A DNA stretch of 64,000 bases from an uncultured Gammaproteobacteria bacterium (GTDB taxonomy: Bacteria; Patescibacteriota; Microgenomatia; UBA10105; UBA927), in contig CAZNKB010000005.1 in assembly GCA_964573695.1 (NCBI GenBank), forward strand, positions 46,012 through 110,011, written 5' to 3'. Below, piece by piece: positions 3,190-53,366 of this stretch. Under the pieces are notes generated by a model. That model saw nothing but the letters and a program-made list of their open reading frames with translations. It did not search any database and had not been told where the DNA came from. Each line of letters starts with the position of its first letter. The first letter of the stretch is position 1. Made by a program: the position numbers and the translations under genes.

Positions 3190-4338
3190 TCATTGTGCAA
3201 TGTAGGGCAGTACAGTGTCAAGCGCGTGCGCGGCCTGTGTATTCCAATCGAGTGACACGCCCAATGATCTGGCCTGGCGGCCCAGATCCGCTCTCTTTCC
3301 GGGATTTCGGAGTAAACGAATTATCGCCTCGGAAAATTCCGGCACGTCAAATAGTTTTACGAGTATAACCCCCTTGGGGTAGACGATTTTTCGTAAATTA
3401 TAGGCAACTCCCGGCACGCCGCATGCAAGCGCTTCGTCTAGAGCGAGATTTCCCGTGTCATAGTGCGACGACGAAATAAACATCCGTGAGGATACAAGAA
3501 GGTTAAATTTGTCGGTTCCGTCGATTTGATCTAGGAGTGAAATGTTTTTTTCGAGTTTACAATCTGTGATAGCCTGGCGTAGCGCTCCCTTTAGAAATCC
3601 CGCTCCGGCGATTGCCAGTCGGGCACGGGGCAATATTCGGGTTACCAATTTCCAGATGTCGACGAGCTCTGTGATGTTTTTTTGTGGATGAAATCTTCCG
3701 ATGTAGACGGCATCGTAGACTTTTTCGTGGGCAGATAGCCTCGCTTGCGTGGCGGCTTTTATATCTGCTCCTCCCCTTATGGCTGTGGCGCGTTTGTGCC
3801 AGTGGGTTCGTATGTAGGTTGCGTCTACGGGGCTTGCGGTCCAGACGGTGTCTGCAAACAGCCTCATAAGGGTGATCCCGATGAGGTACTCCAGCCAAAA
3901 CACCCAGCGGTTAAACAGATTGGAGCCGTATGTTTTTCGCCATGGGGGAAGAAGAAATATATAGCAACCTACCACAAGCAATGCGCGCGGGTGTTTGTGC
4001 GCATCGATAAGCGCAGGGAGTAAATCCTGTAAACTCCACGACCCGGCAAAGATAATCGCTGCATCCAATTGGGGACGTTTATACACGTCAATAACGGCAT
4101 TTAGGATGTGCGCAAGACTTGCCAGGAGTACGCTCTTGTAGTCGGTTTTGAGAATTCGGGCTACGGTCATTTGGTGGGAAGCTATGCCGCGTAAACGAAA
4201 AAAATCGACGGCGTCCTGACTTATGGACACGGTAGCCGTGTGTCCGGCAGCATTCCAAGCACGGGTAAATTCCGCCGCGATGACATCTCCGCCGCTTACA
4301 ACTTCATGGAAACTATGATCGTAGACGCGTATATTCAT
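3190..4338 (-). CDS. GT-B fold (GT4-like) glycosyltransferase
   Basis: 382 aa with a two-domain GT-B pattern and a C-terminal donor-binding-like stretch (E..ALACGVPGVAYN). Confidence 0.75.
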   Translation of the reverse strand: MNIRVYDHSFHEVVSGGDVIAAEFTRAWNAAGHTATVSISQDAVDFFRLRGIASHQMTVARILKTDYKSVLLASLAHILNAVIDVYKRPQLDAAIIFAGSWSLQDLLPALIDAHKHPRALLVVGCYIFLLPPWRKTYGSNLFNRWVFWLEYLIGITLMRLFADTVWTASPVDATYIRTHWHKRATAIRGGADIKAATQARLSAHEKVYDAVYIGRFHPQKNITELVDIWKLVTRILPRARLAIAGAGFLKGALRQAITDCKLEKNISLLDQIDGTDKFNLLVSSRMFISSSHYDTGNLALDEALACGVPGVAYNLRKIVYPKGVILVKLFDVPEFSEAIIRLLRNPGKRADLGRQARSLGVSLDWNTQAAHALDTVLPYIAQ

Positions 4339-22974: not shown

Positions 22975-23550
22975 AATATGAATATGAACAGCGCGCGTTT
23001 ATCAAAAGATGATGTAATCCGGCGGATTGAACAACTTGGAGGCACGTATGATCCTGAATCCGCACTACCACTAGAAGATCAGCTCATGATCTGTGAATCC
23101 CTAGTTCAATCAACGCCTGTAGACCCTAATGATGAAGATGGGAAAATCATACTAAAGTTAAAAGAAGAAGAGAACAAACGAAATGGTAGTGTTAATGGGA
23201 GTGTTAATGGTATAGGAAAACGACAAGAAAACGTAGACGAAACGAATAAGAAAAAACAAGCAATCATTGAATTAACGACATTTAATTACCGGACAAGCCC
23301 AAAGAAAATTGCATTACAACTTCAAATAGTGTTTTCAATGTATCCGAGCAAGGAGGGTCATTGGTTATATATTGCTCAGCACTATACCCCCAAATCCATT
23401 AATTGTGTTATTCATCAAATGACTAAAACGCACGTTGAAGGATGGCAAACGATAAAAAATCCTTCAAGCTACTTTACAGACGTGTTGAAGCAATATCATC
23501 CAATGAGGAAACATAAAAGAAGTGTGAGCAGGACTATTGACAAAATATGA
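22975..23550 (+). CDS. Hypothetical protein (island)
   Basis: ORF of about 190 aa with a GSVNGSVNG repeat. The start is uncertain (22948 or 22975). Confidence 0.35.
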   Translation, partial: NMNMNSARLSKDDVIRRIEQLGGTYDPESALPLEDQLMICESLVQSTPVDPNDEDGKIILKLKEEENKRNGSVNGSVNGIGKRQENVDETNKKKQAIIELTTFNYRTSPKKIALQLQIVFSMYPSKEGHWLYIAQHYTPKSINCVIHQMTKTHVEGWQTIKNPSSYFTDVLKQYHPMRKHKRSVSRTIDKI

Positions 23551-39289: not shown

Positions 39290-40639
39290 ATGACGAGCCC
39301 CAAAGTTCCTCCGCACGATAACGTCGCCGAACAGTCGGTGTTGGGAGCAATCCTTATCGACAAAGATACCATGGTCGATGTTGCGGAGTTTTTACGCCCC
39401 CAACATTTCTATTCGCCTATGCATGGGATGATTTTTCAGGCAATGATCGATTTGTACGAAGCGCATGAGCCGATCGACGTCGTTACCATGGCGGCTCAGC
39501 TCAAGACGAAAGGTACGCTCAAAGATGTCGGTGGGACGGCATATCTTTCTGATTTAGTGAATGTGGTGCCGACGAGTGCTCACGCACAGCAATATGCGCG
39601 CATCATCACCGAGCATGCGACAAAACGCAGACTTGTGGAAGCTGCGGCAAAAATTACCGAAATGGCCTTCCGCGAAGAAGGAAATGCACAGGCGATCGTC
39701 AACGATGCAGAGTCAGAAATTTTTGCAATTGCCCAGACCACTACACGGCGAGATTTTATGCCGATAAAGGATGCGCTGGCTTCATCGTTTGACCGTTTGG
39801 ATGAGCTGCATAAACGGGCCGGTGGACTCCGAGGGGTGCCGACTGGATTCAATGAAGTGGATACCAAGCTTGCGGGTATGCAGGACGCGAACCTTATAAT
39901 TTTGGCGGCACGCCCCGGAACCGGGAAAACAGCAATGATTTTAAATATTGCCCAGCACGTGACAGTGAAGGAAAAAATTCCCACCGGAATTTTCTCGCTC
40001 GAAATGAGTAAAGAGGAGCTTGTGGATCGTTTGCTGGTATCCCAGGCGGATATCGACGCATGGAGGCTAAAAACCGGCAAGCTTACCGACGATGATTTTA
40101 CCAAGTTGTCGGACGCCATGGGTGAACTGGCGGAAGCTCCTCTTTATATCGATGATACGCCGGGAATGAACATCATTGAGATGCGCACGAAAGCCAGGCG
40201 TCTTCAGGTGGAACATGGGGTCAAGCTCATCGTCGTCGATTATTTGCAATTGTGTGATCCCGGCCGCAAATTCGATAATCGGGTACAGGAGGTGTCTATT
40301 ATTTCTCAAAGCCTTAAAAACCTCGCACGTGAACTGCGGATTCCGGTGTTGGCGTGTTCACAGCTCTCCCGGGCGGTCGAGTCGCGGGGTACAAGAATTC
40401 CGGAGCTTTCTGATCTTCGTGAGTCAGGCTCGATCGAACAGGATGCGGACGTCGTGATGTTTTTGTATCGGGAGGAGGGGGATCAGGCCATGTGGGGAGA
40501 TCAGATCCAAACCAAACTTCGCATTGCCAAGCACAGAAACGGCCCCTTAGGCGAAATAGACCTTATTTTCCGAGGAGATCGTATCCGGTTTTATTCCGTG
40601 GAGCGAAAACACACCGAAGCACCTCCTGCAGTTCACTAA
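39290..40639 (+). CDS. dnaB: Replicative DNA helicase DnaB
   Basis: N-terminal DnaB domain. Walker A GARPGTGKT. RecA-like C-terminal domain. Confidence 0.95.
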   Translation: MTSPKVPPHDNVAEQSVLGAILIDKDTMVDVAEFLRPQHFYSPMHGMIFQAMIDLYEAHEPIDVVTMAAQLKTKGTLKDVGGTAYLSDLVNVVPTSAHAQQYARIITEHATKRRLVEAAAKITEMAFREEGNAQAIVNDAESEIFAIAQTTTRRDFMPIKDALASSFDRLDELHKRAGGLRGVPTGFNEVDTKLAGMQDANLIILAARPGTGKTAMILNIAQHVTVKEKIPTGIFSLEMSKEELVDRLLVSQADIDAWRLKTGKLTDDDFTKLSDAMGELAEAPLYIDDTPGMNIIEMRTKARRLQVEHGVKLIVVDYLQLCDPGRKFDNRVQEVSIISQSLKNLARELRIPVLACSQLSRAVESRGTRIPELSDLRESGSIEQDADVVMFLYREEGDQAMWGDQIQTKLRIAKHRNGPLGEIDLIFRGDRIRFYSVERKHTEAPPAVH

Positions 40640-40680
40640 ATGTTACTGCGTCTATTCGTATTTTGGGTTATAATACTTTC

Positions 40681-40824
40681 ATTGATAAACGATTATTGCC
40701 GAGGTGGCACTGCGGTCGTTGCCGCAGCACAACAGGATATTGATAAACGATTATTGCCGAGGTGGCACTGCGGTCGTTGCCGCAGCACAACAGGATATTG
40801 ATAAACGATTATTGCCGAGGTGGC
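40681..40824. repeat. 58-bp tandem repeat, two full copies plus a partial third that is the real tRNA 5' end
   Basis: Copies at 40681-40738 and 40739-40796 are identical by eye. Each unit is 17 bp of upstream sequence, then GCCGAGGTGGC (tRNA positions 1-11), then a 30-nt hairpin segment (CTGCGGtcgttgCCGCAG). Confidence 0.8.
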
Positions 40825-40901
40825 GGAATGGCAGACGCTCAGGTCTCAAAAACCTGTGAGGTTAACCCCTCGTGGAGGTTCGACTCCTCTCCTCGGCACC
40901 A
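40814..40901 (+). tRNA. tRNA-Leu (anticodon CAA), class II with a long variable arm and encoded CCA
   Basis: 7-bp acceptor stem (GCCGAGG/CCTCGGC). 3-bp D stem. Anticodon stem CAGGT/ACCTG with loop CTCAAAA. T arm GGAGGTTCGACTCCTCT. Discriminator A followed by CCA. Confidence 0.85.
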
Positions 40902-40927: not shown

Positions 40928-41881
40928 ATGAAACTATCCAAACTCTACAGACTTGCCGTTGATATGGGCATCGCTTCGGACCCGCGAGGGAAAGAAGGGA
41001 TAAATAAGCTTCTTGCCCGCCGAAAAAAAGAATTCGATGAGCTTCCGAAATCCAAGCAGGCAGAATATGATCCCGAGGATTTAGTTAACCCATATTCGGA
41101 TTCACGCATTTTTTGGGGAGAGCCGGATCTCGAGGTGGATTCGATTATGGCGGGTATCGATATCAATGCGGCAGAAGTTTTGCTTGCCGACCGCCTGAAC
41201 CAGAAAGGTGAGAGTATCGATCTTTTGCTTACCCATCACCCGGAGGGCGCCTCGCTTGCATCATTGCATGAAGTCATGGATGTCCAGGCGGATATCTGGG
41301 CAGATTATGGTGTCCCTATTAATATCGCCGAGGGAGTCATGAGAGAGAGAATCCTTGAAGTACAGCGAAGGTTTAGTCCGGTAAACCACGCGGAAGCCAT
41401 TGACGCCGCCAAATTACTCGGGCTGGCGTTTATGGGTATGCATACCGTGACGGATAATCTCGTGCATCAGTACATGGAGCGTTTATTCCAAAAAGCAGCT
41501 CCGGATACCGTAGGAGAAGTTCTTGATATCCTCAAAAAAGAACCGGAATATCAGGAGGCCATGAAAGGCAAAGCAGGGCCTATGATTTTTGCGGGAGACC
41601 CAAAGAATCGCGCAGGTAAAGTTGCTCCGATCGAATTTACGGGAGGAACCGAACCCTCACACATTATCTACGAAAAGTTAGCTATGGCAGGAGTAGGGAC
41701 GGTGATCGGTATGCACGCAGGGGAGGAGCATCGGAAAGAAGCACTTAAATACCACATCAATTTAGTGATCGCGGGGCACATGAGTTCGGATAGTTTGGGT
41801 ATGAACCTTCTTTTGGATGCGTTCGAGAAAGAAGGGATAAAAATTCTTCCGTGTTCCGGACTTATCCGGGTTGTAAGATAA
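40928..41881 (+). CDS. NIF3/YqfO-family dinuclear-metal-centre protein (tentative)
   Basis: LLLTHHPEG and VIAGHMSSD His clusters are consistent with NIF3-type metal sites. Confidence 0.45.
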   Translation: MKLSKLYRLAVDMGIASDPRGKEGINKLLARRKKEFDELPKSKQAEYDPEDLVNPYSDSRIFWGEPDLEVDSIMAGIDINAAEVLLADRLNQKGESIDLLLTHHPEGASLASLHEVMDVQADIWADYGVPINIAEGVMRERILEVQRRFSPVNHAEAIDAAKLLGLAFMGMHTVTDNLVHQYMERLFQKAAPDTVGEVLDILKKEPEYQEAMKGKAGPMIFAGDPKNRAGKVAPIEFTGGTEPSHIIYEKLAMAGVGTVIGMHAGEEHRKEALKYHINLVIAGHMSSDSLGMNLLLDAFEKEGIKILPCSGLIRVVR

Positions 41882-52145: not shown

Positions 52146-53366
52146 GTTTCAAAGAGGTGCAAAACACGGGGACCTGCCTCGCCGGCAAGGCGGAGTGGGA
52201 GAGTGGTATAGTTTGATATAGTTGATATAGTTTGATATATGTCGGTAAAACTATAGGGTATAATGTGGATAATTATTTTCACGGCGTCCGACAAGTATTT
52301 TCACAGCCTCACCGCAAGCTGGCCACAGCCTGCATGAGGCTAAACTATAGGGTAGAGTAAGTCTTGGGTCCTTCGCACTCGCTTCTTTGAGTACACAAAG
52401 TGTGCGATAAAATGACTATTCGGATTGTTGTAACGCGCTAAATACGATATATCAATACGTCCGGAGTAGTGAATAGCAGCCTCAAATATACGAGTTTGGA
52501 GCATAATACGGCGCTAAATAAAGCCGAAAAGCAAACAAGCTTAGCAGTACTGTTACGTAAACGCTAACATTAGCCTCATATGACGCCGGGAAGCGGATAG
52601 AATACGCACGAAATGCTGTAAGCGGGGCGTTATCATGCTCCATTCTCGTTTTTCACAAGCGGCAATAATATATACATGCAGCCTTGAAAATAGTGATTTG
52701 GAGCGTATGAATGCTCTAAATTGCAACGTCTCCGGCAATCGGACATGCAGCGGAGTGGGATATTAGCCTCAAAAATGTGTAATTAGCGCATTAATACGCG
52801 CTAACTGTGTATAGCATAAAAAACCCGAATGCCCGTTGAGAAGACGCAGGTAATGCTGCGCATTTTTCGTCTTGGGCAGAGCACAGGATTTGTAACGTCT
52901 GCTAGCCTCACTTCAGGGGTGTTACGAGGAGAGGGGTCGCATTCTCCTCCGGGGGTGCCACCGTGGTTTTTTTATCCCTGTTTCGGCCTCAAGTGTTTTC
53001 TGGTTGATTCACGGCGGGGAAGAAAAATCACTATAGTCGCACAATAATACTTTTGCGACGTTAGTATCAGGCATGTGCCTGAATAGGACTTTTGTTGTCG
53101 CGTCGTTGTTCTTGTATTGTTTAAGCAAATTGTATGCGATTGTCGTGCAGTTATTTTTTTTGGCGCTTCGCTATTCTCCTTTGGATTTGGTCGCGTTTTT
53201 TTTGGATCTCCTATGGCAACGATTAGACCTGTTTATAGGGTTACGTATTGTTACTTTTCCGGTCCTACGGGCCGTATTGATTTGTGCGGTTTGGTTGAGA
53301 CGTCTACTTGTACGTCTTTTCGTAATCAGGGGCCTTGTAGGTCAGTACAGGGGCAGGAATTTGAGG
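52146..53366. other. ORF-poor 1.2 kb region with degenerate ~200-bp tandem units and recurring TTAGCCTCA/CGCTAAAT motifs; candidate non-coding RNA locus
   Basis: No convincing ORF on either strand. Related 44-nt segments at 52476-52519 and 52678-52721, period 202 bp. AGCCTCA motif at 52305, 52335(rc), 52478, 52572, 52765, 52904 and 53362(rc). TATAAT at 52259-52264. 7-bp hairpin 52926-52949 followed by T7 at 52967-52973. Confidence 0.45.
52207..52240. repeat. Short tandem repeat (TATAGTTTGA TATAGTTGA TATAGTTTGA TATAT)
   Basis: About 3.5 copies of a 9-10 bp unit immediately upstream of the promoter-like TATAAT. Confidence 0.6.

Follow-up and report, generated by a model that had tools for sequence, protein, structure and literature searches.

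A Structured, Lineage-Specific 5′ Leader of a Patescibacterial tRNA-Leu(CAA) Gene, Probably Duplicated Recently in Tandem

The tRNA-Leu(CAA) Locus and Its Tandem Repeat

The window, by which we mean the whole 64-kb stretch of DNA that was analysed, contains a single tRNA gene, and no other Rfam family was detected in it at the gathering threshold. This gene encodes an intact tRNA-Leu(CAA) with an encoded CCA end (positions 40814–40901, forward strand) and was identified by ARAGORN and by Rfam model RF00005 with a score of 54.4 bits. The replicative helicase gene dnaB occupies positions 39290–40639 of the forward strand; its open reading frame was assigned by the Pfam domains DnaB and DnaB_C on an identical product. 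A NIF3-like gene (40928–41881, forward strand) follows 27 nt 3′ of the tRNA gene. Together with genes for an MFS transporter, a TrpR-like protein and a lactamase-fold protein, dnaB and NIF3 form the neighbourhood of this locus both in the window and in its relatives.

A tandem repeat begins 41 nt after the end of dnaB. Tandem Repeats Finder reported positions 40681–40824 as one array with a period of 58, 2.5 copies, 100% matches, no indels and a score of 288. A run over the whole window revealed this array as the sole sizeable tandem repeat; the only two other matches were found at 23182–23210 (period 12, 2.4 copies) and 52207–52239 (period 10, 3.4 copies). A repeat search resolved the array into two 58-nt copies (40681–40738 and 40739–40796) and three 28-nt copies starting at 40681, 40739 and 40797, all of them 100% identical. 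The two perfect 58-bp tandem repeats described in the first-pass annotation are indeed present.

Repeat unit 1 (40681–40738, forward strand) is composed of an AU-rich leader of 17 nt (40681–40697), a decoy copy of tRNA nucleotides 1–11 (40698–40708) and a spacer of 30 nt (40709–40738). Unit 2 (40739–40796, forward strand) is the same, with its leader at 40739–40755, its decoy at 40756–40766 and its spacer at 40767–40796. A third copy of the 17-nt leader (40797–40813, forward strand) is the immediate 5′ leader of the genuine tRNA, with UU at positions −2 and −1, and alignment showed it to be homologous to the linker ATTGATAAACGAGTATT of the single-copy module of related genomes. The sequence GCCGAGGTGGC, which corresponds to tRNA nucleotides 1–11, was found in the whole window only at 40698, 40756 and 40814, in agreement with the earlier observation that the units copy the first 11 nt of the tRNA once more. 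The 30-nt spacer occurred exactly twice, compared with zero expected occurrences in shuffled sequences. Its further copies, which the annotation had proposed to look for, were absent from the window and from about 30 related loci searched with blastn-short.

Support for the Array from an Independent Assembly

Perfect 58-bp units are longer than small values of k and shorter than a read, so that the array might represent a mis-resolved short-read repeat in a genome which possesses the single-copy module only. An independent k=31 assembly of SRR14932511 (Logan contigs) does break at the array. One of its contigs, L025, starts with a 30-mer consisting of AT, the leader and GCCGAGGTGGC. This start implies that the leader together with the adjoining 11 nt, when preceded by the spacer, continues both into another spacer and into the tRNA, and thus that at least two units exist. 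A single unit would give no k=31 branch at the junction of spacer end, leader and 11 nt, yet L025 starts there. Moreover, reads of 150 nt and large values of k can span the 144-bp array, and independent duplications of the same kind are seen in two related loci, namely the remnant of a second unit in L003 and at least four units in L013. The number of units in the window is known from assemblies of short reads, and the k=31 assembly sets its lower bound at two. An assembly artefact, which the first-pass annotation had named as the finding that would overturn its reading, is consequently very unlikely, as the independent assembly branches in the way expected for at least two units.

Another contig, L026, carries an identical dnaB and ends with ...TATAATACTTTCATTG, 5 nt into the repeat (L026:4380–4395, corresponding to 40665–40685 of the window). 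This break lies earlier than a clean two-unit model predicts and hints at heterogeneity. Possibly SRR14932511 contains a second haplotype at the 5′ edge of the array.

Probable Promoter and Transcription of the Array

A perfect TATAAT is located at positions 40669–40674 of the forward strand and is conserved at the equivalent position in all orthologous loci. In most of these it lies 8–15 nt 5′ of the tRNA or of the first decoy copy, while the gap is longer in L003 and L016. This conserved position provides good comparative evidence for a promoter at 40669–40674, and TATAAT probably represents the −10 box of the tRNA-Leu transcription unit. The promoter had initially been proposed as TTACTG...TATAAT, of which only the second element stood. 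The proposed −35 sequence TTACTG (40643–40648) lies 20 nt upstream of TATAAT, a non-canonical spacing, and is not conserved; a sigma-70 scan made no call at this pair of sequences.

Scanning of the repeat units revealed no TATAAT within them and no call of a promoter-like site or a second promoter. The search for intrinsic terminators gave no terminator-like site between 40400 and 41100, where the hairpin of the unit is followed by CACAACAGGAU. The idea of repeated promoter modules therefore had to be abandoned. The only TATAAT lies upstream of the array. Since the units contain neither TATAAT nor promoter or terminator calls, transcription of the decoys most likely begins at the upstream promoter and places them at the 5′ end of the pre-tRNA, so that the suggested co-transcription of the repeats with the tRNA is probable. 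Transcription would start approximately 7 nt after the conserved TATAAT, and with such a start the module would form the very 5′ end of the pre-tRNA. A role as terminator, attenuator or internal promoter was also considered and rejected; none was called, and the units are devoid of the TATAAT found at every native promoter of the locus.

Homologous Modules in Related Genomes

About 30 orthologous loci were assembled from a genome collection and from contigs encoding NIF3 homologues, with the NIF3-like gene serving as anchor. The loci of close NIF3 relatives belong to Candidatus Gottesmanbacteria and other Patescibacteria MAGs, and the genome of the window is itself a Candidatus Gottesmanbacteria of the Candidate Phyla Radiation (CPR). 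A canonical single-copy module was found in L274 (90% NIF3 identity), L003/L175 (86%) and L009 (82%). It has the order TATAAT-ACTTT-CTGTT-GCCGAGGTGGC-CCCTCAAA-GCCACTGGGGCAACAG-CAT-ATTGATAAACGAGTATT-tRNA, that is, the native leader, a decoy of nucleotides 1–11, an 8-nt loop, an inverted copy of leader and nucleotides 1–11, an AU-rich linker of about 20 nt and the tRNA. The same module with a mutated first tRNA fragment is present in L267 (97% NIF3 identity), which is the closest relative and has the same promoter sequence as the window, and in L269–L271 (91%). More diverged versions were observed in L283 and in the widespread L002 type (L277–L284). A single unit is thus found in relatives at 97%, 91%, 90%, 86% and 82% NIF3 identity, and the comparison of copy numbers recommended in the annotation sets the two units of the window against a mostly single-copy homologue at the same locus.

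In order to relate the repeat of the window to these modules a covariance model, R1, was built from six relatives only. It matched the window unit at 40692–40755 with 33.3 bits and an E-value of 4e-4, and it also matched L283 (E 1e-5) and, weakly, L002 (E 0.16). The match to the window unit indicates that the repeat is a member of this locus-specific family. The earlier idea of a processing module or a small structured RNA therefore pointed in the right direction, with the modification that the unit is a derived copy of a conserved structured leader module. A metagenome scan with the pattern GCCGAGGTGGC-N30-60-GCCGAGGTGGC returned almost exclusively GC-rich coding repeats; the useful matches were L175, which equals L003, and L230. 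We also considered the AU-rich linker as an inverted copy of the −10 region; the alignment was suggestive at first sight, but its score of 12 was not significant against shuffled sequences (p about 0.3).

The architecture of the module is most clearly seen in L274. Its two arms of 16 nt each, CTGTTGCCGAGGTGGC and GCCACTGGGGCAACAG, show 81% complementarity across a gap of 8 nt, and a direct repeat of 13 nt, TTGCCGAGGTGGC, recurs at a spacing of 55 nt. The segment after the loop is an imperfect reverse complement of the native leader and tRNA nucleotides 1–11, and the conserved CAACAG is the complement of CTGTTG of the native leader. With an inverted copy of leader and nucleotides 1–11 followed by a direct repeat, the module is a partial duplication, inverted plus direct, of the 5′ end of the gene itself. 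Comparison of the loci shows this origin. In L274 the sequence has the features of a template-switch product, and we infer a rearrangement of the template-switch type during replication as the mechanism.

This origin bears directly on the proposal that the repeats are scars of successive site-specific integration and excision, i.e., attL/attR-type duplications at the tRNA 5′ end, possibly left by miniature non-autonomous elements. Integrases do produce a partial tRNA copy as a direct repeat, and in L009, L230, L013 and L014 the first copy directly follows TATAAT at the native start position of the tRNA. The distribution of the module is patchy, and the hairpin loops of 6–8 nt superficially resemble recombinase core sites. 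However, no integrase, transposase or element body was found between or beside the copies in any of the approximately 30 orthologous loci, and the inserted DNA is an inverted local copy instead of foreign DNA. The decoy continues after GCCGAGGTGGC with CCCTCAAA (in the window with ACTGCGGT), whereas the tRNA continues with GGAATGGC; the overlap thus differs at the junctions (CCCTCAAA versus GGAATGGC), which is incompatible with a conservative crossover. Searches with the window spacer and with the canonical 24-mer gave no match in 2.9 million viral contigs, and no copy was seen elsewhere in the window or in the loci. In addition, precise site-specific excision leaves no scar. In the light of this evidence integration scars are a highly improbable explanation of the repeats. 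The loose motif CAACAGNATNTTNATAAA gave only chance matches in the viral contigs, none of them beside a tRNA-like 5′ end.

Folding of the Leader

RNAfold predicted a hairpin CTGCGGT-CGTT-GCCGCAG in unit 1 at positions 40710–40727 (forward strand) in both the minimum free energy (MFE) and the centroid structure, and an identical hairpin in unit 2 at 40768–40785 (forward strand). The stem CUGCGGU/GCCGCAG comprises 7 bp including one G-U pair and is closed by a CGUU loop. The hairpin of the first-pass annotation is consequently real, though its dimensions of a 6-bp stem and a 6-nt loop required correction. The 3′ arm GCCGCAG of the window aligns with GCCACTG of the ancestral 3′ arm in the relatives, while the 5′ arm sits at the position of the ancestral loop. 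The motif CAACAG at 40730–40735 and 40788–40793 (forward strand) remains from the inverted copy of the native leader CTGTTG; the sequence it once paired with is gone from the window.

In the canonical module the predicted structure is considerably stronger. The leader of L274 folds with −25.2 kcal/mol (z −4.28), and none of 200 shuffled sequences was as good. The full L274 pre-tRNA is predicted to fold as a 5′ hairpin plus cloverleaf, and in this canonical arrangement the AU-rich linker is predicted to be unstructured and to separate a strong 5′-terminal hairpin from a normal cloverleaf. L267 (z −0.56), L283 (z −0.26) and the unit of the window (z about −0.9) show a weak or decayed hairpin, which indicates that the structure is not uniformly maintained and renders its function uncertain. 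Apparent compensatory changes from U-A to G-C in the L002-type stem and from G-C to U-A in the leader stem of L283 were noticed by eye only. The L002, L283 and window variants pair in different registers, so that a MAFFT column alignment would mis-score their pairs.

Comparison with Rfam 15 detected RF00005 tRNA as the only known RNA family in the window and seven related loci, even at E-values up to 1–10. A known RNA family, ribozyme, riboswitch, T-box or sRNA was accordingly discarded as a candidate, as Rfam 15 contained nothing beyond the tRNA. The conserved loop CCCUCAAA (L274:1340–1347; also in L003, L009 and L269) contains CUCAAA, which is identical to positions 32–37 of the tRNA anticodon loop. 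By our estimate the chance of such a shared 6-mer is approximately 6% for any place in the tRNA and approximately 0.15% for the anticodon loop. In place of CUCAAA, the loop of the L002 type has CUGAAU and that of the L283 type has UUGAAA.

Conservation, Loss and Remodelling of the Module

The modules of L274, L003 and L009 are 91–95% identical to each other, and loop and 3′ arm agree at 27 of 27 positions. In contrast, the four-fold degenerate sites of NIF3 in the same three loci are only 28–40% identical and hence saturated, and the flanking non-coding DNA is 39–70% identical. Module identity of this degree next to saturated four-fold sites points to purifying selection or, less likely, to recent horizontal spread. 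The sequence comparison thus implies that the single-copy module of the relatives is under purifying selection. High conservation together with the patchy distribution could alternatively, with lower likelihood, result from horizontal spread through recombination anchored on the conserved tRNA.

On the other hand, the module is dispensable, because it has been cleanly lost from the sister genomes L001 and L005. The locus of L001 matches that of L274, and L005 matches L009, except that in both cases 55 bp are missing exactly between the 13-nt direct repeats. In a neighbour-joining tree of NIF3 the module is found in three subclades, with sister taxa that lack it. This distribution fits one origin followed by repeated deletion.

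Between the window and L267 the module is only 67% identical, compared with 71% at the four-fold sites of NIF3 and 83–89% in the flanks. Since the module has diverged far more than its surroundings, the copy in the window has to be regarded as derived. Three changes distinguish it. CTGCGGT stands at the ancestral loop position and pairs with the mutated 3′ arm GCCGCAG; through this remodelling of the hairpin to CUGCGGU/GCCGCAG the decoy is unpaired in the window and outside the stem. Past ACTTTC the native leader has given way to linker sequence, and the 58-bp unit is present twice.

A further reading takes the upstream copy as a functionless mini pseudo-tRNA, the remnant of a whole-gene tandem duplicate after internal deletions, with the array of the window as simple slippage. 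In our own reading the 3′ arm and its tail resemble the 3′ acceptor strand of the tRNA followed by ACCA (CCGCAGC-A-CAA in the window versus CCTCGGC-A-CCA), and the loop sequence CUCAAA equals tRNA anticodon-loop nucleotides 32–37. Decay of the decoy differs among L267, L269 and L002, and loss of the module from L001 and L005 had no visible consequence. Yet the complementarity extends to tRNA nucleotides 8–11 (GTGGC/GCCAC) and into the leader (CTGTTG/CAACAG), which a tRNA 3′ end would not give, and D, variable and T arms have left no trace. Furthermore, 27 of 27 identical positions across lineages with saturated synonymous sites are unexpected for a neutral sequence. A neutral pseudo-tRNA relic is therefore an unlikely account of the locus as a whole, possible in part.

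Further Duplications and Related Arrangements

In L003 the segment between the native leader and the first intact unit (L003:3806–3835) reads GC-TCAAT and then repeats the 17-nt linker in full. It looks like an internally deleted second unit and hence like an independent duplication of the module. The 'Woesebacteria' MAG of L013 carries at least four units of another type, 113–114 nt long, 5′ of the orthologous tRNA-Leu(CAA) (L013:3333–3886), with a 100-N gap inside. Each unit contains tRNA nucleotides 1–17, a long hairpin (TTGA...TCAA), a CCCC...GGGG hairpin, tRNA nucleotides 18–24 (GTAGACG) and a linker. In the unit nearest to the promoter the central hairpin is a different one, whose stem changes compensate each other (CACAT/ATGTG versus TGAAT/ATTCA). 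These secondary duplications in L003 and L013 are independent of that in the window.

A copy of tRNA nucleotides 1–24 in three pieces (nucleotides 1–9, 10–17 and 18–24) was found in L014 (L014:3527–3665), with two hairpin-forming insertions between the pieces. A linker and the intact tRNA follow the split copy, and the z-score of the region is −2.66. The short metagenome contig L230 displays the same architecture at a different isoacceptor, tRNA-Leu(UAG) (L230:147–195, minus strand). There, TATAAT is followed by tRNA nucleotides 1–16, a 7-nt loop, the imperfect inverted copy GTTCCTCCACACTTAGGC, another 7 nt and the intact tRNA; the predicted fold has −20.2 kcal/mol and z −3.8. Its presence at tRNA-Leu(UAG) suggests a repeated origin of the layout or its spread from one tRNA-Leu gene to another.

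A palindromic element, CCTGCCCGC...GCAGGCGGG, was observed near tRNA-Leu in three genomes. It is located inside the decoy in L014 (L014:3536–3575), 5′ of the promoter in L017 (L017:~97–135) and in inverted orientation 3′ of the tRNA in L004 (L004:~3925–3965). It looks like a dispersed REP/MITE-like hairpin family.

Proposed Origin and Possible Function

Taken together, the array probably represents a structured 5′ leader module of tRNA-Leu(CAA), specific to this lineage, which was recently duplicated in tandem. Its origin and expression can be outlined as follows. In an ancestor of this Gottesmanbacteria clade, CTGTT and tRNA nucleotides 1–11 were copied once in inverted and once in direct orientation. 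In the transcript, the decoy paired to the inverted copy would form a 5′-terminal hairpin and leave the real tRNA free to fold. Removal of the 5′ leader by RNase P is established in bacterial tRNA processing, and RNase P would cleave the leader off after the AU-rich linker. In the lineage of the window the hairpin was remodelled, the native leader overwritten by linker sequence and the 58-bp unit duplicated.

The duplication itself shows the marks of slipped-strand mispairing or unequal crossover: perfect head-to-tail copies, the 28-nt repeat present three times and single-copy relatives. Direct repeats of 28 bp that lie 30 bp apart readily give rise to slippage or unequal exchange, as is well known. 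Replication slippage or unequal recombination at these repeats is most likely how the 58-bp unit came to be duplicated.

The conserved loop and 3′ arm argue for some role of the module, be it stabilization or processing in cis, a released leader RNA or a switch. Our best guess is a cis-acting element of pre-tRNA stability or processing, or a leader-derived RNA which would be released by RNase P.

A switch of tRNA maturation would make use of the anti-5′ strand, which may pair either with the decoy, whereupon the tRNA could fold and be processed, or with the genuine 5′ strand and positions −1/−2, whereupon the tRNA would be trapped and RNase P blocked. The module would in this manner tune the maturation of tRNA-Leu(CAA), and the extra decoys of the window would shift the balance. 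Because the sequences of decoy and tRNA are identical, the genuine 5′ end is as good a partner for the 3′ arm as the decoy. The idea originates from the MFE structure predicted for the whole precursor of L267, in which the decoy is decayed and the 3′ arm conserved: the arm pairs with the genuine tRNA 5′ end and the cloverleaf is destroyed. In addition, conservation is stronger in loop and 3′ arm than in the decoy. Against this, the evidence is a thermodynamic prediction, and the local hairpin is favoured by the tertiary structure of the tRNA and by folding during transcription. L001 and L005 do without the module, no ligand or factor is known, and the window version has lost the pairing between decoy and anti-strand. 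Pairing of this kind is thus a rather doubtful explanation of the module. Equally tentative, and if anything slightly more so, is the claim of a natural cis-acting maturation switch made from decoy and anti-copy, in which a free anti-strand would trap tRNA positions −2 to +11 and block maturation. The decoy would become unavailable for pairing if it were mutated, outcompeted or bound by a factor recognizing the conserved CCCUCAAA loop. If such a switch existed, the arrays in the window and in L013 (at least four units) would be dosage variants.

Returning to the duplicated leader module as the favoured reading, the perfect repeat of the window is the most visible and derived form of a leader built from forward and backward copies of the tRNA start. 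To our knowledge, structured and conserved 5′ leaders of bacterial tRNAs have hardly been described, and we know of none in Rfam. If the module affects folding or stability of the precursor or the access of RNase P, it would provide an example from nature, in the reduced CPR genomes, of tRNA maturation under the control of a leader. If it has no such effect, it is a well-documented template-switch product with subsequent slippage. The module also cautions that a partial copy of a tRNA need not be a scar of integration.

Comparison with Known Systems

In E. coli the 3′ETS of leuZ acts as an sRNA sponge. The module described here resembles it as a non-coding spacer which is probably co-transcribed with a tRNA-Leu, as promoter position suggests, and which would be released by processing, with a possible function of its own. 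In contrast to the leuZ 3′ETS it is a 5′ leader without sequence relation to that spacer; the comparison draws on its promoter position and conservation.

The tRNA duplications at att sites of tyrosine integrases likewise place a tRNA fragment in direct orientation beside an intact gene and are patchy among relatives. Here, however, the 5′ end and not the 3′ end is copied, the repeats are 44–47 nt apart, and integrase and element are absent. Moreover, the intervening DNA is an inverted local copy which is conserved as a unit across species.

The dimensions of a 28-nt repeat and a 30-nt spacer are CRISPR-like. A CRISPR array or off-target spacer acquisition was nevertheless rejected, since the two spacers are identical, the spacer is found at the same place in other species, the 'repeat' is the leader plus 5′ end of a tRNA, and the repeat length varies between relatives (13 versus 28 nt). 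No cas-like neighbours were found within about 5 kb of the array.

A designed, ligand-controlled RNase P riboswitch is reported to sequester or expose the 5′ leader of a pre-tRNA (PMC7897497). This designed system lends plausibility to leader sequestration as a control of RNase P cleavage, and the anti-5′ strand of the module, which is predicted to be able to pair with positions −2 to +11, could gate RNase P in a similar way. Unlike that synthetic system, the leader described here is natural and without known ligand or aptamer.

Quasipalindrome-forming or short-range template switches and slipped-strand events create or perfect inverted repeats from nearby sequence and expand direct repeats into perfect tandem copies (for example PMC7202029, PMC7954356). 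Events of this kind fit the origin of the module as well as its duplication by 58 bp. These reports deal with mutational events, whereas the module represents a product that is conserved far beyond neutral expectation.

The module is thus best described as a locus-specific variant of known phenomena, namely template-switch duplication, slippage and a structured tRNA spacer, and the chance that it truly regulates the maturation of the tRNA is modest.
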